A stretch of 64,000 nt of DNA from assembly GCF_004010195.1 (NCBI RefSeq), contig NC_057718.1:82539848-82603847 (forward strand). The letters run 5' to 3'. Positions 4,998 to 63,673 of the stretch are shown piece after piece. This DNA is from Chiloscyllium plagiosum. Its lineage: Eukaryota. Under the pieces are notes generated by a model. That model saw only the letters and a program-made list of their open reading frames with translations, was not told where the DNA came from and did no database searches. Positions within the stretch are counted from its first letter, which is position 1; every line of letters begins with the position of its first letter. The position numbers and the translations under genes are program-made.

Positions 4998-5105
4998 AGG
5001 AGAAAGGACTGCAGATGCTGGAGATCAGAGTTGACAATGGAGTGCTGGAAAAGCACAGCAGGTCAGGCAGCATCCGAGGAGCAGGAGAATCGACGTTTCA
5101 GGCAT
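4998..5105 (-). mobile_element. PLE terminal-repeat fragment with partial hammerhead
   Basis: ggactgcagatgctgg...caggtcaggcagcatcc...gaatcgacgtttcaggcat, same family as 30425. Confidence 0.8.
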
Positions 5106-6731
5106 ATGGTTTTTTTTTGTTGGGTAAGATTATGGAGGGATTTAGAGCAACGATGAGTAAATGGAACTGAGCTGTGAATCTTTTCATGAACTAATTAATC
5201 TTATAGCTGAATGGCTTCCTCCTGAGAGACGTTCAAACTAGCATCCTGGTATAATTATAGCAACACCAAATTATCCACTGAATGGTAAGATGGACTTGCA
5301 GCTTGGTTGTCTTCAATAGCAGTGTTGTTTTTACAGATATTTTAGCGCTGAGATGATTTTTGGACATGACTGACCTTTGACAGCAGCCAAGGTTAAATGG
5401 TTAGAACAGTAATGTTCGGCAGCAGTCTAGTGGATTAGTGCATTAGCATCAGTGAGTGTTAAAAGTCTAGAAGTGCTATGGGGGAGTATTTACTAAAAAA
5501 AAAGACATATTTATGTCGGCCTTTTATGATCTCATTAAATTCCAAGTGGTATTTCAGCTGTTCAGTTATGTTCTTACGTTCCTGAAATGGCACCTGTACG
5601 CTCAGCCTTCTGATTCAGTGAAATAGCTACCACTAAGGCCCAGTTGATACCTTAATCAAAGCACAATTAACCAGCTCACTGGACTATAATATGAAAGAAA
5701 GATTTATATGTATTCAAGTACTTCATTGTATTTGAATTCCTTTATGAAAATATATTTAGTGGTCTGCACTCATTCAGATGGAGTAATTGTGTGGAAATTA
5801 TATTTTAAATACAATTGTTAAGGTTGTGGGAGCAGTGTGTTTGTTCTGGGGCAGGGCTGTGAATTGATGACTGGCCTGTTATTGCAGGGCTCCTCCTGTT
5901 GCCAATCCCAAAGCAAGTGCACTTGGTTTTCCAATCTCTGGATGTGGCAGTAGTCGACTGATACATTTTCACGAGTCAATGGGAAGATACAACGGGAAGG
6001 GAAATAGTTGTGAATCCTGCCAAGGGTTTGTGCTGATGAAGCAGCACATCACAACCCCATATTACAACAGGGATTACACTTCAAAAGTATTTTATTGCCT
6101 CTAAAATTAAATTTGAGGTTGTGAAAGCTGCTACATAATGCAGAAATAGGTTGTTTGTAAAATACTTGTCAACTTTAAACTTCAACTTTGAATCCACACT
6201 TGACAAAACAACGTTGAGATGGAATAAGGAAGCATAATTAATAAAATACCATTTAAATGTTGTTAAGGCCTTCAGCTCTGTCAGAACTCTCAATTCAGCC
6301 GACCTGCTACTCCCATTTTCAGCCTTGAATGAAATGAGGAAACATTACTATAGCATTAACAACATTAGCCTTAATTATTTAAATAAATAGTGTTTTCATA
6401 TGCTTTTTAGAGTTTGCTCCGATCATGTATATCCGAAGTTATCAAATTTAAAATATCACAAGGACTCCATAAATGTCCCATATAAATATAAATTGTGCCT
6501 TTTCACAATATATGCTTATTCCTGTCAGGGCACGTTTAGAATATCCATCAAAGCTCGTGTGCGGCCAGATGTCTATTGCGGTTTGCTGATATTTCTAAAA
6601 TGCCTGGTTGCGCTTCATTCAGACTCCCTGTTTGCAGTGGAAAATAATCACTGCTGAAGGTTTAACCCATGTAGCACTGGTTTTATTTTCCTACAGTCAA
6701 ATACTGATAAATCCAGGCCTAGTTAATTCTT

Positions 6732-6868
6732 AGCTGAAAATGTGTTGCTGGAAAAGCGCAGCAGGTCAGGCAGCATCCTGTTCCCTGGATGCTGCCTGAC
6801 CTGTTGCGCTTTTCCAGCAACACATTTTCAGCTCTGACCTCCAGCATCTGCAGCCCTCACTTTCTCCT
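6732..6868. mobile_element. Fold-back PLE-derived short element with 18-bp TSD
   Basis: Inverted arms of about 47 bp. Flanking direct repeat cctagttaattcttagct at 6718-6735 and 6869-6886. Confidence 0.85.
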
Positions 6869-8466
6869 CCTAGTTAATTCTTAGCTTATCCACCGTCTAA
6901 AACATTCTCTGAGCAGTCCTGTTCAGTATGACAAGGGCAGTAGGCTGTTAGCAGTTGACTACCTCCAGGTTCCCAATCAAGTAACACGCCAGCACATTTC
7001 TGATTGTTCGTACGATGTCCATATTGCCCATCCCTTAATTGTCCAAGGGCAGTTAAAAGTCAGTTACATTACTGTGGATTGGAGACACCTGTAGGATGAT
7101 TTTGTTCCCTAAAGGGCATTGGTGTGAGAGCTAGTTTTATTTAACAGCAATTGACATTGTTATACATGTCACCATTTGGCTGGTCTTGTATTGTAAATTT
7201 TTATGGAATTCAAATTTCATCGTTGCCTTAAGTCCTCAAAACATTAGCCTCATGTCCTGGATTGCTAGCCCAATGTCATTACCACTGCGTTACCATCTCC
7301 CAATATGTTGCTGTTGATTTATTGTTGCCTGAACGTCCTGGAAATGCCTACCTGATAGTATTGTGGGTATACCCTTGGTGTGTGGATGATAAGGGGTCAT
7401 AGCCACCACCTCAAGAGCTTAGACAAAATATCTGCTGTTTATTTGGAAGGCAAAAAGCTATTACTGAAATATTGAGCAACATATAGAACAGCTAGCTGCA
7501 CCTTTTAAATCCACTCAATTTAGTATTGTTTAACATAAACTCCATTTATAATAAGTACTACATTCAACAAGGCACAGGTCCAACCTAAATATTAAGTATC
7601 TGTTGCTGTCTTTGTGATGTTTTTATTTGACCTGTTAGGTGATTAAAATTGTCCACTAGATTTTGTATATTGCAGTAGCTAATCATCAAAAGGCATTGCA
7701 TTGGCTGTGAAGTGATTCCATGTTATGAATGGTGCTATATAAGTGCAAGTTTTCTGTTAGATTCAAATAATGCTTTTCAAAAGATTTCATGTAATGCCAA
7801 TTAATGATGGAAATACAGCAATAAGCTATTCCATTGTATATAAATCAGGGATCCTTTATTTTGGAAGATTACCTCAAGATTTTCTCCAGGGCTATTTCTT
7901 GATTTTACGGGGCTGCTTTTTCATTGTCATAACTGATGTATTATGTGATACAGTCACATCTCATTAGCGGGGCTTATCTGACACAATCGGCTGAATGTCA
8001 CGAGGTCGTACAGCACCTGCTCCAGTTGCAGTTCTGATGGTTCTGCTACCTCCTTCCCCTCAGTTTGGCCAAGGTCTGTGCCACGCATCAGGTAACATGA
8101 GATTTAAAAAAAGAGGTAAACCTGTAGAAATGCTAGAACCAGTAGATTGAATGTAGGAGAAAAGATAAGTTAGTGTTTTGTTGTAGATCAGGTGGCTCTG
8201 CTGGCTTGTTTCCAGTATTTTCTCTGTTTAAATAAAATATTGTTGTCTTCCTATCTGAACTGTAGATGTTAGCTACCACCTGATAGCACTATGGAAATGC
8301 AGTGGATTAACAAAAGAAAGTGCTTCTGTTTAGCCCTGAATTTGTATAGCCTCAGGTGTATGTGTCGGTGCACTTCCACGTTCCAGATAGTCTCGAATTA
8401 AAGCAAGGTAATTGTTTTGCTTTCTCTCCCCATCTTTCCTCCTTACCCTGTCTTCCTCTCTGTAGT

Positions 8467-8794
8467 CATGATTCGGCGATGCCGGTGTTGGACTGGGGTG
8501 TACAAAGTTAAAAATCTCACAATGCCAGGTTATAGTCCAACAGGTTTAATTGGAAGCACACTAGCTTTCGGAGCGACGCTCCTTCATCAGGTGGTTGTGG
8601 AGGGCTCGATCGTAACACAGAATTTATAGCAAAAATTTCAGTGTGATGTAACTGAAATTATACATTGAAAAATTGATTGTCTGTTAAGCCTTTCATCTGT
8701 TAGAATACAGTTAGAAGGAGTGTCGCTCCAAAAGCTAGTGTGCTTCCAATTAAACCTGTTGGACTATAACCTGGTGTTGTGTGATTTTTAACTT
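8467..8794. mobile_element. Fold-back hammerhead-bearing element (probably PLE-derived) with about 15-bp TSD
   Basis: Inverted arms about 8505-8584 and 8715-8794. Direct repeat cttcctctctgtagt at 8452-8466 and 8792-8806. Confidence 0.8.
8559..8593 (-). ncRNA. Minimal hammerhead ribozyme motif (intact core)
   Basis: Minus strand reads CAC-CUGAUGA-A-GGAGC-GUC-GCUCC-GAAA-G-CUA|GUG. Stem I CAC/GUG, perfect stem II, palindromic AGCU in place of stem III. Confidence 0.8.
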
Positions 8795-9074
8795 CCTCTC
8801 TGTAGTGATTGGAACCAAGTAGACCTCATTGACTTATGAGGTCTGTTGATTGGGGTTATTAACCTGGGCCGATCAGGAAAACCCTGTCTGACCAAAATAA
8901 CCAGGACATTAGAATCTCTTCGGAAAAAAGAACAAGAAAAAAATGAAACAAAATACAGAACCAGGAGATTAGATTCTCCTCAGTTTGACTGACTCTGAGC
9001 TGGCTGGTAACAGCCAGTGTACTGTGCACTAGTAAATAAAGATTGACTTGGTGACGGATACCAGCCTCGGTGCA

Positions 9075-11315: not shown

Positions 11316-11447
11316 ACGAAACTGAGGACTGCAGATGCTGGAGATTAGAGTCGAGAGTGTGTGGTGCTGGAAAAGCACAGCAGGTCAGGCAGCATCTGAG
11401 GAGCAGGGGAATCGACGTTTTGGGCAAAAGCCCTTCACTAGGAATCT
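11316..11447 (-). mobile_element. PLE terminal-repeat monomer with 16-bp TSD and degenerate hammerhead
   Basis: TSD catatcaaaaaacatg at 11300-11315 and 11448-11463. The unit ends at ggaat, the stem I strand. Confidence 0.85.
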
Positions 11448-17624: not shown

Positions 17625-20210
17625 ATCATAAGGTCGTAGGATAGAGCAGCAGAATTAGACCATTGAGTCTGCTCCATCATTTAATCATCAGGAGGCTGGA
17701 AGACCACAGCAAGCCTGGCAGCATCAGGAGGTGGAGGTTGACATTTTGAGTGAAACCCTTCTTCAGGACTGGGGGGAGCTGCAGTCATCGACCAACTAGG
17801 TCATACCCTCTACCTGTCTTCACCTATCCCCACTTCACCACCCTGGCCCTGCCACCTCCTTTATCTGTAGCTCCCCATACACCCAACCCCAGTTCTGAAG
17901 AAGGGTTACGCCTGAAATGTAACCACATCCTGATGCTGCCTGGCTTGCTGTGTTCTCCCAGTCTCCTGCCTGTTTACCTTGGATCCCAGCATCTGCAGTT
18001 TTTTTGTCTCCCACCATTTTACATGGCTGATATGTTTCTCCACCCCATTGTCCTGTCCACTCCCTGTAATGTTCAATCAAGAATCTATCTATCTCTGTCT
18101 TAAATCTATCTATCTCTGTCTTAAATGCACTTAATGACCTGGCTGCCACAGAAGGTTCTGGAGGCTATGAGTTCCACAGATTTACCTCCCTGTGGCTGAA
18201 GAAATTCCTCCTTATTTCAGGTGTAAAGGGTTGCCTTTTCACTCTGAGGCTGTATATCCTCGGGGCCTAGTCTCTCCTATTAGTGGAAACATCTTCTCCA
18301 CATCCACTTTGTTCAACCTTTCAGGATTCTGTAAGTTTCAAATTCCACCTCATCCTTCTATACTCCATTAATTACAGACCCACAGTCCTCATAGACTTAT
18401 CATATAACAAACCCTTCATCCCCAGGATCATTCCTGTAAATCTCCCCTAGACTCCCTCCAATGCCAGAACATCCTTCCTTAGATGTGAGGCCCAAAACTG
18501 CTCACAATGTTCCAAATGCAGGCTGACTACAGCCATATGCAGTTTTAGCTGTACATCTCTGTTCTTGTATTCTAGCCCTCTTGAAATGAATGTTGACATT
18601 ACATTGCCCTCTTAACTGCCAACTGAACCTGCAAGTTAACCTTCAGAGAACCCTGAACCATTTGTGCTTCAGATTTCTAAAGTCTTTCCCCATTCAGAAA
18701 ATATTGAATTATTCCTGCCAAGTGCACGACCTCACTTTTCCACATTGTATTCCATCTGGCTCTTTTTGTCCACTCTCCTAAACTATCCAAGTCCTTCTGC
18801 AGCATCCTCACTTCCTCAACATTACCTGTTCCTCCATCCGTCTTTGTGTCATCTGTTAATTTAGCAACAATACCCTCATTTCCTTCATCACGGTTGTTAA
18901 TGTATAATACGAATAGTTGCGATCCCAACACTGAGCCCCACGGAACTCTGCTAGTCACTGGCTGCCACCCTGAAAAAAACACTTTATCCTTTGCCTCTAC
19001 CAGACAGCCAATCCTCTATTCATGCTAGTACTTTGTCCCTAACAAAGGGCTCTTATTTAACTTAGCAATGTCCTGTATGGCAAAGGCCTTCTGGAAATCC
19101 AAATAGAACAGGTCCACTGGCTCTCCTTTGTCAATCTTGCTCATTACCTCCTCAATGAATTCCAGCAGATTTGTCAGGCATGTCCTTCCCTTGAGGAAGC
19201 TGTGCTGACTTAGCATTGTTTTACATACACTTCCTTAATAATGGACTCTAAAATCTTACCAATCATCGAAGTCAGGCTGAATGGTCTATAGTTTCCTGTC
19301 TTCTGCCTTTCTCCCTTCTTAAACTGGAGGTTACATTAGCTATTTTCCAGTCCTCTGGGACCATCCCTAATTCCAGTGATTCCTGAAAGATCACTATCAA
19401 TGCCTTTATGTTCTCCTCAGCTATATCTTTCACATCTCTGGAGTGTAGTCCATCTGGTCCAGGTCGTTTATCCACCTTCAGATCTTTCAGTTTCCCCAGC
19501 ATCTTCTCTTTTTTTGATGGCCACTGCACTGACCTCTGACCTCTGGGTCTCTTGAAGTTCTGGTGTGCCACTGGTGTCTTCCACTGTGAAACCTGATGCA
19601 ATGAACCTGTTCAGTTCCTCTGCCATTTGTTTGTTCCCCATTACTACTTCTCCAACTCATTCTCCAGTGGTCCAATGTCCACTTTTGCCTCTCTCTTACC
19701 TTTTTTATATATCTGAAAATAACTCTTGCAATCTTCTTTTAGTTAGCTTACTCTCATATTTCATCTTTCCCTGCTTATTGCTTTTTAGGTACCCTCTGCT
19801 GTTTTTAAAGGCTTCCCAATCCTCTGGCTTCTCACTAACCTTCACCACATTGTATGCTTTTCCTTTTGCTTTTATGCTTTCCCTGACTTCTCTTGTCAGC
19901 CATGTTTGCCTCATCCTCCCCTTAGTATCTTTCTTCTTCCTTGCGTTGCCTTTCTGTTGTGCATCCCAAATTATCCCCAGAAACTCCTGCCATTGGTGTT
20001 CAACCATCTTCACTACTAGGCTCCCCTTCCAATCAACTCTGGCCAACTCCTCCTCCATGTTTTTTATAGTTACCTTTACATTGTAATACAGTCACAACTG
20101 ATTCCAGCTTCTCCCTGTCAACCTGCAGGTTGAATTCTATCATATTGTGGTCACTGCTTCCAAGGGCTTGCTTCACTTTAAGCTCTCTAATCAAGTCTGC
20201 CTCATTGTAC
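17625..20210 (-). mobile_element. CR1 LINE (endonuclease end, RT, 3' end), with a PLE unit nested near its 3' end
   Basis: Minus-strand ORFs GPDGLHSR, GRTCLTNLLEF, YLDFQKAF, GSVLGSQLF, TDDTK. Confidence 0.92.
17689..18010. mobile_element. Fold-back Neptune-type PLE terminal repeat with two opposed hammerhead motifs
   Basis: Motifs at about 17737-17771 (-) and 17891-17924 (+, AGTT-CTGAAGA-AGGG-TTACG-CCT-GAAA). Inverted arms. Confidence 0.75.
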
Positions 20211-24200: not shown

Positions 24201-24551
24201 TTGTCTCCATCAGAGTCTCTTAACCAATAATTTAGTTCATTCTCCCCAACACCGATCAACACAGGATCTGGGAGCTCCCTGATACTGTCCAGCTGTCTGC
24301 TTACAGCATGAACTCAGCGATCCATGGGGAAACCCATCACAGCCTGATCAAGCTACGAGAGCAGTATATATTCTTGCTTTAGCTGTGTCTGATTGTATGG
24401 AGGTGGAGTTGTAAAATCCATCATTTTGCAGCTCATTTGCAAGTAAGGCAGTGGAACATCTGTTGCTTACGATGTTAATGCTGAGATGTGTCAGTAATCA
24501 ATTGGTGAGAGGTCAACTCATTAACAGTGGCTTGTTTTCCCACTTTCTCAG

Positions 24552-24709: not shown

Positions 24710-25158
24710 GTAAGCTACCTGTTCGGTTTGTGCCAGGCATTGCATTCATTTGCTTTCTCACTGTTTTGGCAAGGAATCAGTAAAAATAAAGTTGCCTTTC
24801 ACAACCACGGAACATCTCAAAGTGCTTCACAGTGCTCGTGATTCATTTAGTGTTAAAGTGTAAGCCACTCCCTTGACCAACTGCTCAAAGTCGTGTCAGT
24901 GACTTGGACGTGCCACGCTTATTGGCCCTGTTCCTGGCCTTACCAGGAGAAATATTCAAACTCGATTTTTCTCTCTCCAATAAGGGGAATCATTGGGCTT
25001 TCCAAACTACCGCCAGCCATTTCCAAGCAACCCCTGATGTATCAGTCTGGATCTGAGGCTGGTGCTAAATTCTTTCATTTAATTAGCCTGTTTAATAGAT
25101 TCAGGGTAGAGGAATTTGGATGGAATTTGGTGTCAAACCCATTCCTAATATTGCGCAG

Positions 25159-26381
25159 AGTCGAAAAGTGTGGCGCTGGAAAAGCGCAGCAGGTCAGGCA
25201 GCATCTGAGGAGCAGGAGAGACGGCATTTTGAGTATAAGGTCTTCATCAGGACTGGGGAGGGGGGGTGAAGCTGGGAAGAAGGTAGGTGGGAAGGCGATA
25301 GGTGGATGCAGGTGGGAGGTAATAGTGATAGATTAGTGGGAAGGGCGGAATGGATACGTGGGAAGGAAGATGGACAGGCAAGAGGGCGGTGCCGATTTGG
25401 AGAGTTGGATCTGGGATGAGGTAAGGGGAGGGGAGATTTGTGAAACTAGTGAAGTCGATGTTGATGCAGTGTGATTGGAGACTTCCAAGGTGGAAGATGA
25501 GGCGTTCTTCCTCCAGTTAGTGGGTGGCTTGATTTGGCAGTGGAGGAAGCTCAGGACTTGCATGTCCTTGGGGAGTGTGAGGGGGAATTGAAGAGGTTGG
25601 CCACAGGGTAGTGAGGTTGTTTGGTGTATGTGTCCCAGAGATGTTCCCTGAACTGCTCCATGAGTTGGCATCCTGTCTCCTGTAGAGGAGACCACATGAA
25701 GAGAAACGAATACAGTAGATGAAATGGGTGGATGTGCAGGAAAATCTCCAGATTTGAAATGATCCTTTAGGGCCTTGGATGGAGGTGAGGGGGGTAGGTG
25801 TGGATGCAAGTTTTACATGGTTCAGGGAACATTTCTTGGACGCACGCACCAAGCAACCCCACTGCCCTGTGGCCAACCACTTCAACTGCCCCTCTCACCC
25901 CCCCAAGGACATGCAAGTCCTGGGCCGCCTCCACCGCCAAATCAAAACCACCCACCAACTGGAGGAAGAATGCCTCATCTTCTGCCTCAGGACCCTCCAA
26001 CCACATGGCATCAATATCGACTTTACCAGTTTCCATAACTCCCCTCCCTCCCATCTCATCCCAGGTCTAACCATCCAACTTGGCACGCCCTCTTGGCCTG
26101 TCCATCTTCCTTCTCACCATCTGCTCTATCCTTCCTACCGACCTATCACATTCACTCCCACCCGCATCCACCTATCACCTTATCCACATTTACCTTATCC
26201 CCAGCCCCATCTCTACTCCCTTATTTGTCTCTCAGTGCCCTCCCCCCTTCATGTTCCTGATGAAGGGCTTATGCCTGAAACTTCAACTCTCCTGTATCCT
26301 TGGATGTTGCCTGACCTGCTGTGCTTTTCCAGCACCACACTTTTCAGCTCTGACTGTCCAGCATCTGCAGTCCTCACTATG
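25159..26381. mobile_element. Neptune-type Penelope-like element, inverted two-arm structure, GIY-YIG C-terminal remnants, 16-bp TSD
   Basis: FREH...PVANHFN..SH...MQVLG...LEEECLIFCLRTLQPHGINIDF on the + strand, with a mirror copy on the - strand. TSD tcctaatattgc(g/a)cag at 25143-25158 and 26382-26397. Confidence 0.88.
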
Positions 26382-26869
26382 TCCTAATATTGCACAGCTG
26401 GATTACAGTTCTACGTCACACCTCGTTACTTATGGGGGAGGTCGATAGTTCCTTTGGTTCCCCATTTTCCTGCTGTATCTGATTGATGGGTTTGGGAAGA
26501 GTGGGATTTGGTTGCCGCTTGTATTAATATTTCTCAATCCCTATGGGTGAAAATTGCAGTGTTTTGAAAATTGGTTGCCCTGGCAACATTAGACTGCCTC
26601 AAATTATGGTGCATATCAAGCTGCATTCACACTCTGTATAACCCAGCACTGAGGGGTTTCCTTTGCGTTTTGCACCAGCTATTCCTTGAAATGTAGAAGT
26701 CACAGTAAAACTTCCAACTTGTTTGATTTTCCTGAAACGGATAGGAAATTGACATTGTGAATATTATAGTTTGTACTAAGGAGCACTGCATCATTGGAGG
26801 TATTGTCTCTCAGATGAAAAATTAAACTGAGGCCCCATTTGCCCTTTCTGGTGGATGAAAAGGTTCCAA

Positions 26870-30150: not shown

Positions 30151-30424
30151 ATGCCTCATTCTGCTCCCACTAGCTTTTTAACCTATGGAAAGGGGAAGCT
30201 GAGCAGCTTTATTTGAGCAAGCCAGTGTCAGGCAAGGTGTTGGCAGGGGTAAGCCTTCTTTGTGGATCTTATGAACTCCCATGAGGCAGCGTTGAACCAA
30301 GCTTTAACTGGGCTCCTTGACATATTAGGAATGCCTGTAGTTCCAACAGTGGCCACTGCTCCTGGCTGGCACTGCTGGGACAAAACATTTGTTGGTCATC
30401 CGATTGGCTAGAAATCTCTTGAAG

Positions 30425-30648
30425 GAGAAAGTGAGGACTGCAGATGCTGGAGATCAGAGCTGAAAATGTGTTGCTGGAAAAGCGCAGCAGGTCAGGCAGC
30501 ATCCAAGGAGCAGGAGAATCATTCCTGAAGAAGGGCTTATGCCTGAAACGTCGATTCTCCTGCTCCTTGGATGCTGCCTGACCTGCTGCGCTTTTCCAGC
30601 AACACATTTTCAGCTCTGCTCGCCAGCATCTGCAGTCCTCACTTTCTC
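30425..30648. mobile_element. Fold-back PLE-derived element: 96-bp arms around a hammerhead core
   Basis: Arms 30425-30520 and 30553-30648 are reverse complements with 2 mismatches. Confidence 0.9.
30521..30556 (+). ncRNA. Minimal hammerhead ribozyme motif
   Basis: AUUC-CUGAAGA-A-GGGC-UUAU-GCCU-GAAA-C-GUC|GAUU. Confidence 0.75.
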
Positions 30649-31499
30649 TTAGATATATATCATAAAAGCAAAATATTGCAGATGCTGGCAGTCTGAAATA
30701 AAAACAGAAAACTGAGGAGGGCCAAGTTGTGGGGTATGACCTGTCTTTGTAATATAACCTTTTCTGCACCGGTACCGTTCTGATGAATCTGTACTGCACG
30801 CCCTCCAAGAGCCTCCTATGATGAGGTGTCAAGAAGGAATCACAGTGTTGCAAATAGTGTATTACCAGAACTGCATATAATCTTTTCTATAAGGCACTTT
30901 CCGAGAGGTTCCCCTTAAGCCAGCTCTGGTCATGTTTCCAGAGAGCAGCAATAAAGAGAATGGGCAGGGCCATCTATTCAGACACTTGGTCTGGGGAAGC
31001 ATGCACCAATAGTGGAGATTGGGGAAAAAAAAAACAGATGTCTGAGCTATGCCCCACCCCCCAACCTAATAATATCATTAATTTCTTTCCTCCCTTCTCC
31101 TTCCATTCTTAACCCTATTTGTTGGTCCTTTATTCTCCCACTCTCCTCCCCCCACACCATGGGTTTTTGCCTCCCTCAGAATCCCTTTCAGCTGGGCCAC
31201 AGGTAAAGCTAGCATCGCCTCCTTCGTGACTACCACTGGTACTCTGTGCTCAGTCGACCATGAGGGACAACTCTTGCGAGGCGAGACAAATCTATGGCCG
31301 GGCTTTTTGTTCCAAAGGGTAAGATGCGCCTGCAAGTCAGCTCTTGAACGAACCGGTCGAGAACAATGATGAGAAAGAGCAACAGCATTGCTCTTATACT
31401 TGGCCATGTAACCATTGGGGTTGTGAAGGCAACATCTTAACAAGAACTTACCCTTATATAATGACTTCAATGTAATAAAACATTCCAAGGTAACTCAAG

Positions 31500-35870: not shown

Positions 35871-36886
35871 GTAAGAAAGTTTATAGTTTCAATAACAGCC
35901 TCAATTTTATAATTCCAAAGAAGATTCACAATCATAGAATTTACCAGCTGCTGAGCTCACAGGCAGGACTGGTACTGGTTATTGATTTGGAACAGATGTA
36001 ATTCAGATCCAGTAATGTTGCAAATTTACAGAATATATTTGGAGGGTCCAGAGCAGAGTGAACAAAAGCCATCTGTGGATTGACAGTGGAGGGGATTCTA
36101 GACATAGAAAGTTTTAATCTGCTTAGAAATATGAGGTTGATATCTGTGAAAGTGACCCAGGAGCTGCTGAATTGTCATAAAAAGCCAAATGGTTTGCATG
36201 TCTATAAGGGAAGAAAACCAGTTCTTATGATCCATGACTTAAATCTCACACTAACCTGTTTTGTGTTAACCCTTTGATGTGGCTTGGCAAGGTGTTCAAA
36301 CTCTTCCTCAAGTCAACTAGATAGAGTAATAAATGCCAGCATTGCCCAATGAGAAAATGAGGTACTGAGAATGAAAACATTTTTTTCAAAAATCCTTGAC
36401 AGTAGTGTGTGTGTGATAACATTGGAAAACATGACAGCTTGCTTGGGCTTTCAATCTCAACGACCTGACATTTATATATGTTTGAGTATACAAGGACAGG
36501 GCCATCTTCCCAAGAAAGGATTGGGCTAAGTGAGGCATCCAATCTAATTTGAGTCTAATTTTAGTCCCAATTAGCTTCAATAAAATGAGTTGTATTCAGG
36601 GCTCCTAGCACATCTGTGTGTATGTGAGTAATTGTTGGTATGTTGGTAACTAAACATTGGGAAACTGAGCCCCTTGTTCTTGAGCGTGCTGTAAATGGCA
36701 TTCCATGCCTTCGGATTTCATCTCTTTCCCTGGCAACTGTGAAATTGAACCAAATTGTCACCAACCTTGGTGTCATATTTGACCGCAAGGTGAGCATCTG
36801 ACCACATATTTGTGCCATCACTAAAATGTCCATTTCCATCTCTATAAAATCACCTGCTTTAGCTCATCTATGCTAATCTAATTCTA

Positions 36887-37018
36887 GGCAAAAGTGAGGA
36901 CTGCAGATGCTGGAAACCAGAGTTTAGATCAAAGTGGTGCTGGAAAAGCACAGCAGATCAGGCAGCATCCAAGGAGCAGGGAAATCGACATTTCGAGCAA
37001 AAGCCCTTCATCAGGAAT
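36887..37018 (-). mobile_element. PLE terminal-repeat monomer with near-intact hammerhead (36983-37018)
   Basis: Minus strand AUUC-CUGAUGA-A-GGGC-UUUU-GCUC-GAAA-U-GUC|GAUU. Confidence 0.8.
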
Positions 37019-38029
37019 CCTGTTTAACTGCCTAGGTCCTAAGTAATGGAATTATCTCAATAAATCTTTCTTTCTTTAAAACCCTGTTCTATGACCAAGC
37101 TTTTGAATATTTGTCATTATATTACTTTATTTGGCTCAGTGTCCAATTTTGTTTTATTAGGCTGTGTGAGGTGCCTCACAACATTTTATTGCTTTGCAAA
37201 CACTGAGTGTTGTTTTTATCCATGTGTGACCGTGTCTATTTGCTCTGGTCTGTGTTGGTATATGCAAGTAGCTCTGAGTGCTGGGGCTATATGTCTGTGG
37301 GTCAACATATCTATTCCATCATGGCTTTGATATGCACGGCCTATGCACTAGATCTTCTTACTTTATGGTAGAATTTAAAGTCGAAGATGGGGTTGATGCC
37401 CACTCATTGGAGAGCCACAAGAGCCTGCATTGCCTATTTTTGGGAAGTTCTGCTGAACTAAGTATTAATCGGGCAGTTATCTGTGTGGCAACAGGCCAAG
37501 GGCCATGGGAGATTAACTCCTATCCTCCCTGACAACCCATTGGAGGCTGTTTACTGTACATTGCTCGGCAGCATCACCGTGACAATGTCTGCTGTGGATA
37601 ATGAGCCAATCCGAGACCCAGCGTCAGCTGGGAGCTTGCAGGGTCACGTGGTGGTGGTTGCGGGGAGGAAATGGAAGAGGAGTCAGCAGTGAAAGACACT
37701 TTATGGATGCCCTCCTTCCCAATGCCAGGTCTCTCAATCAGGTACTGAGTCCACGTCAGAGAGTGACCCCCAACCCCCTCTCACTTCAAAGCCCACAGCA
37801 ATTCACAGAGTTTGCCTTTGAGGCTTTCTGTATGGTGTTGCCCTTAACCACCACTTGTTCAGCTCCAGTTAAGATGGGATAAGGCGGTTAGTTAGGCATA
37901 ACTGCCCACTCGAAAGCCTCAGTGAGGACTGGAGCAGGAATAACATCCCCAAGCTTCTCTCCACAAACATAATCAGGGCAGAGGTGGAAAGCTGATAGAA
38001 TTAGCTCTACCCTTCTGCTCAGAAGATAG

Positions 38030-40565: not shown

Positions 40566-41803
40566 ATCAAATACCATCTTGCGCCAAAAAGGCTAAGGGA
40601 TAGATGGTCAAATTCTGCCCTTGCTGTGCAGTTTGCAAGCAGAAGGTGAAAGCTTGTGCTGATCCTTGTAATTGGAAGTAAGGCAGATGGGGAACATAAT
40701 CACACGTGATGGTAGAAATCAGGTCTTGATGGAAAGGTGGAAGCTTGCAGTTTAGTTCTTGGAACTTAAAGATGGATCAAACTGAAGCCATTTTGCATGC
40801 ATTTGAAGGTCATGCATGTTCATTAAGACACCAGAATTATGTTCCCCTTTCCAACAAAGTTCTCTTCAAGCAAGCGACATGTCCCTCTGACTCCTGACAG
40901 CATGTCAGCGGCGTGGAGCAGGTGAGGCATTGAATTTGCTGGACTTCAAAGCAAATAGCCGTTGAGAGTGTTTGTTTCTGTCATACCGTGATTGACTTCG
41001 GCTGGCAGCTGCACTGAGGAAGACCAGTGGAGGGAGACTGGTGCGTAATGGGAACAGGCTGATCAGGGAAAACAGGCTGATGAGGGCAAGGGAAACAAGT
41101 AGATTCGGGAAGTGATTGAAAAGGTTCAAATGTTTTAGCCCTATGAGAACCTGAGTGATGCTCTTGACTTGTAGAAAATGCATTGCCTTTAAATTTGGTG
41201 CCAAGACTTTCTACTCCATGAGGTCATGACGAGGCGTTGTTTCGAGTTTCTGCCTGGTCCTGCCAGAAGATTCACCATGCACATCATACAATACATATCG
41301 AATAAGCTAAGAAGGGCATTAATCGTGGAAGGACAGCCAACCTGCCCCTGAGCAGAGGTGATACTTCCATAGACTGTGCAATGGAAGATTCTGCCTAGAG
41401 TTTCAATAGAGGGTGTTGAAGTGGGATGACTGCTTTTGTTGATGAATGTGTATGGTGTGTGAAACAGAGAGGAGAGGCTGTTTGTCTTAGTAACTAGCAA
41501 AGAGTTCTGCATAACAGCAGAAATGTCATGCTGTGTCAGTGTTCAGACTCTGGTTTCCTAGATTATCTCCAAATGTCAGGGGATACAGTCCAAACTAAGG
41601 GCGGGGGAAGAAGGTCTGTGCAATTTAAAGATGTATACAACTGAAATGTTCAAAATGAAGGTTTGTAACACACAGCAGACAATTGGTTCCAGGAAAGCTT
41701 ATGCTACTGATGCTATTGGCTTGCAGACCCTTGTTGAATGCATGTTGTTGCTAGCCTTTTGTTCTCTTTCTCTGGGATTGACTGTCGTCAACATTTGTTG
41801 TAG

Positions 41804-41957
41804 GCAGAACGCTGAACTGGCTAAATTGCGGCAGGAGTGTGCCAAACTCACCAAGGAGCTGAGCGAAAAGTCGGAGGCCCTCCAGCAGGATGAGCAGCAG
41901 AGGAAGGTTCTGGAGGGAAAAGTCAGCAAGTATGAGCAGCAGCTTACTGAGCTTCAG
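41804..41957 (+). CDS. RRBP1: RRBP1 coding exon
   Basis: ttgtAG / GTgagc. 154 nt, QNAELAKLRQECAKLTKELSEKSEALQQDEQQRKVLEGKVSKYEQQLTELQ. Phase 2-0. Confidence 0.95.
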
Positions 41958-42289
41958 GTGAGCGAGAGCACGTTGTCCAATAGTTCTGTTTGTATGCTAT
42001 ACCATCTGTACCCCTCAGTGAACAGCTTGTGACTTTTCCTCACCATCTTTCTCGCTCCTTCTGATGACTTTTTTTTCCTGTGTTTCCAACCCAGCTGTCA
42101 ATGGCTCAGTTATTGTGCTTTAGAGTTAGAAGATTGAGTTCCATTCCAGGACTGAGCGAGTGTATCACTACTGGGAGGTGCTGCCTTTCAGATGGGACTT
42201 TAAAGTGAGGCACCATCTGCCCTCATGGGAAAATGAAAGATCCTAAGACTTTATTTGAAGAAGAGCTGAGGAGTTATATGAATGTACAA

Positions 42290-45655: not shown

Positions 45656-45764
45656 TGAAGGGCTTTTGCTCCTGTTGCTCGGATGCTGCCTGACCTGCTG
45701 TGCTTTTCCAGCACCACTCTACTCTAGACTCTGATTTCCAGCATCTGTAGTCCTCGCTTTTGCC
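45656..45764 (+). mobile_element. PLE terminal-repeat fragment
   Basis: gaagggcttttg...ggatgctgcctgacctgctgtgcttttccagc...gtcctcgctttt. Confidence 0.8.
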
Positions 45765-48021: not shown

Positions 48022-48339
48022 AGGCGGAGAGGGGTGGGGAGGGAAATATATCCCTGGTGGTGGGGTCTGTTTGGAGGCGGAGAGGGGTGGGGAGGGAAAT
48101 ATATCCCTGGTGGTGGGGTCTGTTTGGAGGCGGAGAGGGGTGGGGAGGGAAATATATCCCTGGTGGTGGGGTCTGTTTGGAGGCGGAGAGGGGTGGGGAG
48201 GGAAATATATCCCTGGTGGTGGGGTCTGTTTGGAGGCGGAGAGGGGTGGGGAGGGAAATATATCCCTGGTGGTGGGGTCTGTTTGGAGGCGGAGAGGGGT
48301 GGGGAGGGAAATATATCCCTGGTGGTGGGGTCTGTTTGG
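48022..48339 (+). repeat. 53-bp minisatellite, 6 identical copies
   Basis: Unit aggcggagaggggtggggagggaaatatatccctggtggtggggtctgtttgg starts at 48022, 48075, 48128, 48181, 48234 and 48287. Confidence 0.95.
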
Positions 48340-49871
48340 GGGTGGGGGGAATGTCGGCGGATGATTTGGTTTATGCGGAGGTTGGTAGGGTGGAAGGTGG
48401 GCACCAGGGGCGTTCTGTCCTTGTTGCGGTTGGTGGGGTTGGGTCTGAGGGCGGAGGTGCGGGATGTGGATGAGATGCGTTGGAGGGCATCTTTAACCAC
48501 GTGGGAAGGGAAATTGCGGTCTCTAAAGAAGGAGGCCATCTGGGGTGTTCTATGGTGGAACTGGTTCTCCTAGGAGAGATACGGCGGAGGCGGAGGAATT
48601 GGGAATACGGGATGGCATTTTTGCAAGAGGTAGGGTGGGAAGAGGTGTAATCCAGGGAGCTGTGGGAGTCGGTGGGTTTGTAAAAAATGTCAGTGTCAAG
48701 TCGGTCGTCATTAATGGAGATGGAGAGGTCCAGTTACCTCTTCAAATTAATAGACTTGCAAATGCTTGTTATCACTGGCAAATTATCAGATTTAGATTTA
48801 ATATAATTAGTTCCTTTTTCCCTACTAGCCCCCTGAGCTGATTTTCTAATGCTATGATATTTAACAACTTTTGATGAAAAATGATCTGAGTTGCAGCTTG
48901 TAGCTACACAAAACAGCCTACATGATGGCACTAATGATTATAGTTCAACTAGGTACAAGTTAATTAGGCATTAAGTACAAAAGATGGATTTTTACTCCAA
49001 TCCTTTGATGTGTAGGCCACCCTGTGTTCAAATTGTTTAGTTTCTTTGTCCTTTACTCTAATTCCACCCCTCCCCCTTCGGATAGATCATTATTAGAACA
49101 TAAAGTCCAAGTAGTACCTTATTGGTATGATTCTAAGCCAATCAGTGGCACTGTAGCCCATTTAACTCATAAATGTTCATACAGTATTTCCATTTTGTTA
49201 CTCCCTGACAATCTCCAGCACTTTTCCAGCACAGACAACTTAAAAGAAGCTTTGGTAAGACAGGTTTACAATTACACTGTTGATGTACAATGTATTTCAC
49301 ATTAACATAAACTTCTGTTATTGGAATTTGTAATGCTGGGATCAGTTGAGTGCTTGCTTCAGTGTAGAGCCAGTGGTGTTTTCCTTGTAACAATGGAATT
49401 AAAAAATGAACTGTGCTGCCTTGATGAGAGAAAAGGAATGCCGTTTTGGTGGTTCTGTGTACTGTTGCTGCCCTATTAGATAGAATGGCCAATACCTCAA
49501 TTCTGATATGTAGGATTAAGGACTTTGTGGGTAAAGAGAAGTGGATTCAGAGATCACTATAACATGCAACCCAGAATGAGCTTCGCTCCGTCCACATGCA
49601 GTTGCAGAACAACTCGAAATCCTCTTTAATTAGGAGGAGGCCTTTCCCTTAGAGTTGCCAATCTGGTTGAATATGTTCTAGAGGTTTCCTTATGTGACCT
49701 CCTACCTCTAATCGCCACACCCTGATACTCCCATCATTGGTCACCCAGCATATGCAGTAGCTGATTTTGTCCTGTCTTTAACCCACCCAGCGTGGTTTCT
49801 TAAATGAATTAAAACATGTTCTGTGGGAAGTTGGCTATTGTCACACCTATTGACCCAGGGTAGGCCAGCAT

Positions 49872-52473: not shown

Positions 52474-53721
52474 CCTGAATGACCACAATTGTTAGTCAGT
52501 GTGAGTTAGCCTGTGGTGATTTAAGCAGTGCCTATGATGATTCTACATTCACCCATCTTGATCATTGGACAATTTGGACACTGAGGCCTTGTCCCTAGGG
52601 CATGATTTCTAATCTTGAGCTCCACATCTGTCTGCTTCCACTGCCTTTTCAATGTGTGTCCAGAGTGACTCTGGGGAAACTGGATCTCTCAATCTCTGTT
52701 CTATGTCCCCCATGAGACTTCAGTCCAATATCTGTAAATCTCGGCTCAAACACTTTTCCATGTTGTGTCAATCATTATGGTTTCACAAGTCACATTCACT
52801 TACTGCACAATGCCAGCACCTATTCCAGCTACTACTTTAAGTGCACCTTTTCTTTAAGTGACAGGTTCGTTCATGGGATATGGGTGTTGCTGGTTGGGCC
52901 AGCACTTGTTGTCCCTGACATGGCGATTATGAGCTGTATTCTTGAACCCTGCAATACCTGCATGGTAGGTAGACCCACAATGCATTCAGGGAGAGAATTT
53001 CAGGATTAACACTGAACAAACAGCGATATATTTCAAAGTCAGGATAGTGAGTGGGTTGGATGGGAACCTGCAATTTGTTGTCTGAGAGTGCAAGGAAAAG
53101 ACAAACACACAACCTCAACACCAAGGAGAGGGAAGCACTGAAATCACTAAGAAACGATAAGAACATAATCATACTACCAGCAGACAAAGGCAGAATGACG
53201 GTCATCCTGGACAAAGCAGACTACATCCAAAAAGCGCAACAACTACTTGCAGATACCAACACCTACCAAAAGAGGGGGTTTGACCCCCCCCCCCCCCCAC
53301 CAAATAGGATAAACAACACACTGAGGAACCTAAAAAAAACAGACAGATAACCAGGCTTGACCTACAAAGAATGAAACCTGAAAGCAACAACACCCCCAGA
53401 TTCTATGGACTACCTAAAGTGCACAAACCAGACATCCCACTCAGACCCATAGTATCACTACCAGGGACACCATCACACAAACAGGCTAAAGAAATACAGC
53501 AGAAACTGAAACAACTGATCAGCGGATCCAGACACTCTATACAATCAACACAGGAATTCTTGCACATCATCAGAAATATACACATAGACAAGGAAGAAAC
53601 CATGGCCTCATTTGATGTAACGGCACCGTTCAAACAGATTCAATCAATAAGCACATCGACCTGGACCCAATATACCGACCACTGCAACGGACAGCTGGAA
53701 CTGACAACCGGAAGCGGCAGA

Positions 53722-54247
53722 NNNNNNNNNNNNNNNNNNNNNNNNNNNNNNNNNNNNNNNNNNNNNNNNNNNNNNNNNNNNNNNNNNNNNNNNNNNNNNN
53801 NNNNNNNNNNNNNNNNNNNNNNNNNNNNNNNNNNNNNNNNNNNNNNNNNNNNNNNNNNNNNNNNNNNNNNNNNNNNNNNNNNNNNNNNNNNNNNNNNNNN
53901 NNNNNNNNNNNNNNNNNNNNNNNNNNNNNNNNNNNNNNNNNNNNNNNNNNNNNNNNNNNNNNNNNNNNNNNNNNNNNNNNNNNNNNNNNNNNNNNNNNNN
54001 NNNNNNNNNNNNNNNNNNNNNNNNNNNNNNNNNNNNNNNNNNNNNNNNNNNNNNNNNNNNNNNNNNNNNNNNNNNNNNNNNNNNNNNNNNNNNNNNNNNN
54101 NNNNNNNNNNNNNNNNNNNNNNNNNNNNNNNNNNNNNNNNNNNNNNNNNNNNNNNNNNNNNNNNNNNNNNNNNNNNNNNNNNNNNNNNNNNNNNNNNNNN
54201 NNNNNNNNNNNNNNNNNNNNNNNNNNNNNNNNNNNNNNNNNNNNNNN
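53722..54247. other. Assembly gap
   Basis: Run of N. Confidence 1.
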
Positions 54248-54529
54248 GACACGACCAGCTATCCTTAGTAGCCACACACGCAGATGACAAGCAACCTGAG
54301 TTTGACTGGGACAACACTACTATCTTAGGACAAGCCAAACAGAGAACAGCCAGGGAATTCCTAGAGGCATGGCACTCATCCACAGGTTCAATCAATAAGC
54401 CCATTAACCTGGACCCAATATACCGACCACTGCAATGGACAGCTGGAACTGACAACCGGAAGCGGCAGATTCAAACCACTATAAATGCCGGAGGAAAGAT
54501 CACCGAAGCGCTTCACAGGAGGCTCCCAA

Positions 54530-54569
54530 GCACTGAGGATGTCACCTAGACAGGGGACGAAATGTCTGC
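54530..54569 (+). ncRNA. Minimal hammerhead ribozyme motif in PLE terminal repeat
   Basis: GCA-CUGAGGA-U-GUCACC-UAGACA-GGGGAC-GAAA-U-GUC|UGC. Confidence 0.75.
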
Positions 54570-54849
54570 AACACAAATTCCCACTCGGCGAACAGAACCA
54601 CAACAACGAGCAGCCGAGCTACAAATCTTCTCACAAACTTTGAACAGCTTAATCACACATTGTAATCCCCACACTTGTTTCCATTCTGTGATTTAGTAGC
54701 CCTCGGCGAACAGAACCACAACAACGAGCAGCCGAGCTACAAATCTTCTCACAAACTTTGAACAGCTTAATCACACATTGTAATCCCCACACTTGTTTCC
54801 ATTCTGTGATTTAGTAGCCCTTGTGCGTGTGAGAGACTACATGCACCTG

Positions 54850-63053: not shown

Positions 63054-63487
63054 GTAAGAGATGATTATTTGTTGTCTAAATGATCTCAATTTTAGTGGGC
63101 CAGCAACTGTGTTTTTAATTGAAAAGATGGAATTCTAAATTGTACTGTCAGCAACAATACTGTACATTTCCCATCATGCTTGACACCAGATTGAAGATGC
63201 GAGGTCCAATCTGTGCTCAGTTGGCTGAACTGAGGGGAAAAGACTCTACAGGTCCTCCTTTTGATTGCTATCCAGTGACCCCTGCTGGAACATCCATGTA
63301 TGTGCAGACTTCCAGTGAATCCAGCTCAGCCTCAGCTGTCAAACTGTCTGAACTCTGTTAAGACAAATGATCATGCAAGTGATGTCAGAGCTTTATAGAT
63401 CAGGCTGAGCCATAGCCAGGCAGCAGTGCCTCAGTTGAAAGCCTTGTTGGGTCATATAGTAAAGGTGAAGTCACCATAGTCCTAGAG

Positions 63488-63673
63488 ACAGTGAGGACCG
63501 CAGATGCTGGAGATCAGAGTCGAGAGCGTGGTGCTGGAAAAGCACAGCAGGTCAGGCAGCATCCGAGAAGCAGGAGACGGGCTTATACTCCTGATGAAAG
63601 GCTTATGCCTGAAATCTCGATTCTCCTCGGATGCTGCCTGACCTGCTGTGCGTTTCCAGCACCACAGTCCCAA
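63488..63673. mobile_element. Fold-back PLE-derived element with hammerhead in loop (63587-63622) and 13-bp TSD
   Basis: TSD catagtcc(t/g)agag at 63475-63487 and 63674-63686. CTGATGA-A-AGGC-TTAT-GCCT-GAAA. Confidence 0.82.

Follow-up and report, generated by a model that had tools for sequence, protein, structure and literature searches.

Insertions of Penelope-like elements (PLEs) are heavily 5′-truncated and often comprise an inverted, 5′-truncated copy together with a 30-40-bp tail at one end (PMC8557442). In rotifers, PLE insertions show a shorter inverted pseudo-LTR (pLTR), a 31-bp tail and target-site duplications (TSDs) of 8-10 bp (PMC3846280). The minimal hammerhead ribozymes (min-HHRs) of metazoan PLEs are mostly solo, with opposite-strand pairs found 100-700 bp apart; they do not cleave as monomers and cleave weakly as dimers (Cervera and De la Pena 2014, PMC4209133). 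For PAc (Poseidon of Anolis carolinensis), the protein cuts and extends both strands, reverse transcription (RT) starts at two internal sites bracketing the tail, and the ribozyme is assisted by the protein, is not required for insertion and shows no read ends in RNA-seq (Frangieh et al. 2024, PMC11167929). Animal retrozymes, on the other hand, are defined as tandem arrays carrying two or more hammerheads on the same strand (bioRxiv 10.64898/2026.07.22.740005; PMC7229834). The first of these two sources requires two consecutive hammerhead units, reports cleavage in one of nine dimers tested, and also admits minimal motifs.

The locus considered here lies in a 64-kb stretch of Chiloscyllium plagiosum DNA, called the window, to which all coordinates refer. 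Our analysis indicates that it follows an ordinary pattern and is most likely a known kind of insertion, not a new retrozyme. The locus itself is of little importance, being one fossil among tens of thousands, although it provides a clean example of one tailed and one tailless end.

Anatomy of the insertion

The insert is 355 bases long (8452..8806) and contains a hammerhead motif, a mirror-image second arm and a duplicated target site. Its features are as follows.

8452..8466, unstranded: target-site duplication, left copy, 15 nt, exact
8467..8504, minus: tail, 38 nt, on the left side only, with no counterpart on the right
8505..8585, minus: arm A, the 3′ part of the pLTR, containing the poly(A) signal, the larger part of the hammerhead and a stem's 5′ arm
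8545..8550, minus: ATTAAA hexamer, the likely poly(A) signal of RNAs that end at 8533 and 8530
8559-8593, minus: minimal type I hammerhead motif, all conserved residues present, matching a strict descriptor
8593-8583, minus: 5′ part of the hammerhead, with CAC (8593-8591), CUGAUGA (8590-8584) and an extra A (8583)
8582-8570, minus: hammerhead stem II, 5 bp and a 3-nt loop
8569-8559, minus: 3′ part of the hammerhead, with GAAA (8569-8566), then GC, UA, and GUG (8561-8559)
8586..8711, minus: element body upstream of the ribozyme core, high-copy, ending at 8711, the 5′ truncation point
8710..8716, plus: inversion junction, 7 nt repeating 8699-8705
8714..8794, plus: arm B, an inverted, 5′-truncated second terminal repeat without the tail, 81 nt
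8792..8806, unstranded: target-site duplication, right copy, its first 3 nt overlapping the end of arm B

A sequence-only reading of the locus had noted a complete hammerhead core at 8559-8593 on the minus strand, a direct repeat of about 15 bp and a partial mirror copy at about 8713-8732. The core, including its CUA cleavage triplet and the AGCU palindrome in place of stem III, is borne out both by reading residue by residue and by the strict descriptor. The repeat is likewise real, with 15 nt exact between 8452-8466 and 8792-8806. The mirror copy is present too, but it was given far too short an extent (20 nt), and actually covers the 81 nt from 8714 to 8794.

With helix III replaced by the palindrome and helix I reduced to 3 bp, the hammerhead (8593-8559) has its predicted cut between 8562 and 8561 on the minus strand. 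This is the sole match to the strict descriptor in the window, and 60 simulated windows of the same trinucleotide make-up gave one match in all. A looser scan of the window returned eight core-like sites. Rfam models gave nine matches window-wide at E ≤ 1, none of them a hammerhead in the element and none in the element at all.

None of 1,926 random window pairs at equal spacing reached a 15-nt exact repeat, the longest being 12 nt (2,000 pairs were drawn, from which 68 with N and six overlapping the element were removed). Contig depth rises from ∼16 to ∼1e6 at the left TSD edge. Loose ends of the family before 8480 carry identical letters up to ∼8464, and the last 3 nt of the left TSD probably match the element end as well, as microhomology. 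The tail is high-copy in all four sequencing runs aligned (see below), with loose ends clustering at 8467-8480, and hence belongs to the repeat. A 9-bp stem links the two sides of the pLTR boundary, with its 5′ arm (8542-8534) in arm A and its 3′ arm (8494-8486) in the tail, both on the minus strand. The tail also holds an ATG (8469-8467, minus), which may be the start codon of a putative parent.

Arm B is identical to arm A (8505-8585) at 76 of 81 positions, leaving five mismatches, and family loose ends cluster at its outer edge (8789-8794). It starts at G8 of the core, so that CUGAU is missing, and G12 is changed to A; it therefore contributes no second ribozyme. The 7-nt repeat at the seam suggests a locally templated or microhomology-driven join. 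If the site is intronic, the 81-bp near-perfect hairpin (8505-8794) would give long dsRNA in the host pre-mRNA, a possible editing substrate.

Family abundance and genomic setting

At least half of the element's sampled words occur in 20 of the 24 listed runs, which come from four organisms and nine studies. Four runs were aligned to 8250-9000 at 85% likeness. These yielded 72,323 contigs for X12 and 67,753 for X5 (both DNA runs), 13,528 contigs for X15, and 3,573 of 12,955,460 raw RNA reads for X21, a poly(A)-selected single-cell library from organism D, a relative, in which circles are undetectable. A single-copy sequence would have refuted the sequence-only reading; the contig counts of the two DNA runs clearly speak against that. 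In X12, depth sums to 15.8 over the left flank, compared to 2.8e5-1.1e7 within the element; these depths are not to be taken as copy numbers. Element-related sequence is thus very abundant, with related pieces numbering in the tens of thousands in shark DNA. The flanks of the contigs are heterogeneous, as in dispersed, 5′-truncated copies of a longer element.

The window copy ends at 8711, but the family does not. In X21, 276 RNA reads pass this point with one common continuation (agreement 0.96), a 30-letter read consensus that comes from organism D and not from the source organism. Because these reads share one continuation, the family must be longer and the window copy cut short. Of the 15 joints listed (823 others are outside the list), 12 skip from 8538-8599 to 8717-8768 at varying points; the seam of the window copy is absent from these 15. 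Fold-backs are therefore common in the family and turn at different places. The family ends fall into two clusters ∼40 nt apart, one at the pLTR end (8789-8794) and one at the tail end (8467-8480), with mixed flanking sequences. Among the 40 variant positions listed (85 others are not), the window copy differs from the X12 depth majority at 8474, 8477, 8517 and 8524, all outside the core, and substitutions in the ribozyme are confined to loop II (8576, 8577). These data indicate that the core is ordinary for the family and that the copy is not brand new. The ribozyme is a standard minimal hammerhead of its family.

Occupancy of the site probably differs between relatives. An X12 contig spans the left flank into the tail (8250-8489), showing that the site is filled in organism B. 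In X5, the aligned piece of a 770-nt contig of depth 6.73 ends exactly at 8451, with 83 letters left over. X5 depth at 8842-8843 is 15.5 and stems from two contigs, one contributing 8.81 and leaving ∼6.7 for the other. It is quite likely, on these depths, that the X5 contig jumps from 8451 to 8792 and represents the empty site, the joint itself being outside those listed. Organism B probably carries the insertion and organism A probably lacks it, a difference that might make the locus useful for phylogeny. In both flanks, ∼3% of the letters depart from the window (8/240 and 7/202).

A homolog search showed the exon at 41802-41960 to be 98% identical to bamboo-shark RRBP1, while the ESM Atlas gave no identification of it. 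Eleven RRBP1 exon matches on the plus strand, between 24551 and 63071, cover residues 228-687 of the bamboo-shark protein; residue 228 is at 24551, and residues 1-227 are absent from the window. The element probably lies in a long RRBP1 intron, with its ribozyme antisense to the host transcript. The right flank (8796-9000) is modestly repetitive in the two DNA runs, with X12 depth of 1e2-1e4.

The window also contains remnants of PLE-type ORFs at ∼25.4-26.1, 39.9-40.4, 47.8-48.8 and 53.1-53.6 kb, none of which overlaps the element. For the remnant at 47.8 kb we found nine long relatives with RT domains, eight of them with GIY-YIG. Near-identical tandem duplications by assembly gaps lie inside PLE ORF remnants at 48022-48345 and 53634-54821 and may be assembly artefacts. 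Other hammerhead-type ends are present as well.

6732-6881, 11318-11446, 30410-30656, 63481-63666, 36883-37030, 4998-5106 and 45669-45764: stubs of a second, commoner hammerhead-end family

Three of these stubs are fold-backs, and two of the stubs have 16-nt direct repeats; the one at 6732-6881 combines a fold-back, a one-sided tail and a 16-nt repeat. Considering nine other stubs in the window, direct repeats measure 16 nt in two and 8-9 nt in three, and are lacking in four. A longer insert of the second family (25156-26395) is flanked by a 9-nt repeat and contains ORF remnants in inverted arrangement, one on the minus strand (25394-25876) and one on the plus strand (25776-26072). Two further hammerhead-type ends are found, one at 17895 and one within 53075-54670, at 54533, directly after a PLE-type ORF remnant.

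The sequence-only reading had placed the element in a distinct family, and blastn agrees: there is no second copy in the window, and the best matches outside the element are 13-15 nt long. MAFFT gave no usable alignment of seven ends outside the core. Despite this unrelated sequence, the element end is built like the other hammerhead ends of the window. Their common stem, of 7-9 bp, starts 18-27 nt after GAAA and closes 39-50 nt later; it is present in the element end and in four of the six other ends tested, the remaining two having stems of 5 and 6 bp. The 86-nt element end folds better than 196 of 200 shuffles.

No coding remnant was found in the element by tblastn with 150 PLE-type proteins, gathered using an ORF remnant elsewhere in the window, or by a profile of them, as the sequence-only reading had proposed. 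Protein and profile searches likewise returned no RT or GIY-YIG in this copy. Two of ten looked-up PLE-type proteins have names, one from a snail and one from a ray. The 28-residue frame ending at the tail ATG was too short for a protein search; five short motifs taken from it were absent from the 150 PLE-type proteins, save for one 4-letter chance match. A search for longer copies gave no matches in the viral contig and genome contig collections. Three metagenome contig loci showed only 19-23-nt matches and were rejected as chance, as was, on the minus strand of the right flank, a peptide resembling a PLE linker (8922-8839), whose score of 1.8 bits was equalled in 9 of 200 shuffles. As no RT/GIY-YIG gene was tied to the family, its autonomous parent is a presumed one. 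One caveat here is that only ∼120 nt upstream of the core are present, and hence the missing ORF says little. This end may belong to a long element of sharks whose ORF is of the Neptune type.

Ribozyme activity and the poly(A) site

To judge from an energy model, the isolated 49-mer forms helix II with a probability of 0.94-0.95 and helix I weakly (0.13-0.14). When the entire minus-strand RNA is folded, the model pairs the two arms with each other (mean 0.95), and each of the five ribozyme base pairs examined has a probability of 0.0. A double hammerhead of two 43-mers reaches -18.3 kcal/mol, compared to -33.1 for the best predicted dimer fold. No same-strand hammerhead partner of the family was detected by blastn in the 64 kb. 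Cutting would need a second same-strand copy or the protein of the element. Because arm B is predicted to sequester the ribozyme in read-through RNA, this copy is a poor candidate for activity, and the insertion is probably inert today. Of the sequence-only proposal that this is the window's best candidate for activity, one part stands, namely that it holds the sole core matching the strict descriptor. Against it are the lack of a partner, the sequestering arm, an orientation antisense to the likely host gene and the four non-core differences.

The minus strand carries a likely poly(A) site between the ribozyme and the tail. In X21, where the first mate lies on the plus strand, 989 of 3,573 reads contain poly(T), 537 of them before 8530 and 452 before 8533. 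The poly(T) ends are 12-15 nt past A(A/T)TAAA, and the site is not A-rich. The AATAAA variant (8549) makes up 30-37% of contig depth in X12 and X5. We infer that RNA of ribozyme sense ends at 8533/8530 in organism D. X21 depth is continuous across the predicted cut (1,390 and 1,571 in adjoining bins), and no pile of read ends is seen, although this type of library would probably not retain a 30-nt 3′ cleavage product. The hexamer is absent from the other six ends tested. RNAs ending at 8533/8530 may be host transcripts that borrow the signal.

A tentative and rather doubtful alternative is that the PLE family ends its own transcripts in the pLTR, ∼30 nt downstream of a hammerhead left uncut and 25-65 nt before both RT starts, and that only tandem read-through RNA is copied. 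A poly(A) site placed before the RT starts implies that the finished mRNA could not be the template; if true, this would explain in a simple way both the tail of PLEs and their dependence on tandems. Furthermore, the poly(A) site lies immediately beside the 5′ arm of the stem formed by pLTR and tail, so that this stem might determine whether the RNA ends there or is read through. A narrow literature search, including PMC2377424, did not turn up any earlier description of poly(A) sites in pLTRs. Of all the observations made here, this site is the only lead of wider reach, bearing on the template RNA of PLEs and on the purpose of the hammerhead.

Origin of the insertion and comparison with described systems

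We consider it very likely that the locus is a single, TSD-flanked insertion that joins the truncated hammerhead end of an abundant repeat to an inverted second copy, made most likely by the RT/endonuclease of a PLE and probably inert. By analogy with anole PAc (PMC11167929), the element protein would cut both target strands ∼15 nt apart. One cut would prime at the distal start, at the tail end, giving a cDNA of ∼245 nt that runs through the ribozyme and stops at 8711, and the other would prime at the proximal start, at the pLTR end, giving an 81-nt cDNA that stops inside the ribozyme core. The two cDNAs would then be joined head to head at the 7-nt local repeat of the seam, and gap filling would produce the TSD of 15 nt, which overlaps the element by 3 nt at either end. 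The presence of a tail at one end only is consistent with both cut strands having acted as primers, at the two RT starts known in vitro for the anole element. As PMC3846280 argues for self-priming on an antisense template to explain head-to-head inversions, two-ended priming is one of two models.

Other origins must be weighed against this one. We give little credence to the idea that the family derives from PLEs but is non-autonomous, its full unit being longer and non-coding (pLTR, ribozyme and tail) and moved in trans, with the present copy still a truncated, inverted insertion of it. The 245 nt examined hold no ORF, our searches linked no parent ORF, the family is very abundant, and PMC8557442 describes pLTR-bearing non-autonomous derivatives of PLEs. 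However, the short stretch of ∼120 nt upstream of the core makes ORF absence a poor guide, an ATG sits at the tail end, where the ORFs of rotifer and anole PLEs begin or have begun, and the end is unlike the other PLE ends of the window that could be its partner. It is very unlikely that the fold-back formed after insertion, through a nested second stub or a repair-driven inversion, since a single TSD bounds the two arms precisely, nothing of the unit is present at the probable empty site, and the same layout recurs in the other hammerhead-end family. The differences between the arms at 5 of 81 positions and the local 7-nt repeat at the seam would suit such a history.

The sequence-only reading had favoured a retrozyme-like non-autonomous element, that is, a unit which is transcribed, cleaves itself, circularises and is copied as a 355-bp fold-back. 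We find this scarcely credible. An intact core, a TSD, the lack of coding capacity, the many related sequences and the presence of family RNA in a relative are all compatible with it, and animal retrozymes have been proposed to derive from the pLTRs of PLEs. Yet the locus is a single unit with one ribozyme and no tandem, and its second arm is on the opposite strand, with the core lost. The family runs past the inversion point, since the 276 reads reaching 8711 go on into different sequence, and other copies invert elsewhere. The predicted sequestration of the core by arm B and the lack of a read-end pile at the cut site count against it as well, as does the finding that minimal PLE hammerheads showed no cleavage as monomers (PMC4209133).

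These conclusions agree with how the locus compares to known systems. It resembles non-LTR (animal) retrozymes in being ∼300 bp long, non-coding, PLE-related and equipped with a type I hammerhead. However, retrozymes are head-to-tail tandems, which PMC7229834 describes with canonical hammerheads and circular RNAs, whereas the element is a head-to-head truncated insert with one minimal hammerhead, a single unit without a second copy in the window. Its helix I is 3 bp long, compared to ∼6 bp in canonical type I hammerheads, which have loop-loop contacts. Plant LTR retrozymes have a type III hammerhead, direct LTRs and 4-bp TSDs, compared to the type I motif, inverted arms and 15-nt TSD seen here.

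The ribozyme is, by contrast, a close match to the min-HHRs of PMC4209133. Comparison with that consensus, by eye and with the descriptor, shows a CUGANGAH box with its extra base, a stem II with G10.1-C11.1, a GAAAN-palindrome-NUH segment with the palindrome standing in for helix III, and a short helix I of 3 bp. The turtle row of the alignment carries the same palindrome as the element. The alignment portion available has no shark or ray row, and file 1 of that paper may list shark families. Full-text literature searches with four sequence motifs of the family gave no match, though 2026 preprint supplements may list shark families, and a search combining Penelope, shark and hammerhead ribozyme retrieved nothing relevant.

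PAc offers a parallel on two counts, in that two end clusters flank the tail and no read ends mark the ribozyme cut site. It differs in that its RT starts lie within the ORF, ∼111-118 nt in; the part of PMC11167929 available makes no mention of polyadenylation between the ribozyme and the tail.

The TSD of the element, at 15 nt, exceeds the 8-10 nt of the rotifer PLE cases quoted from PMC3846280, although 16-nt repeats flank two of nine other stubs in the window. A second difference is that only 245 nt of body are left, and hence no ORF. In its other features, the insertion looks like the units of endonuclease-bearing PLEs as portrayed in PMC8557442 and PMC3846280: a hammerhead in the terminal repeat, an adjoining, shorter inverted arm, 5′ truncation, a one-sided 38-nt tail within the 30-40-bp range, and a TSD, for which one X5 contig points to the corresponding empty site.
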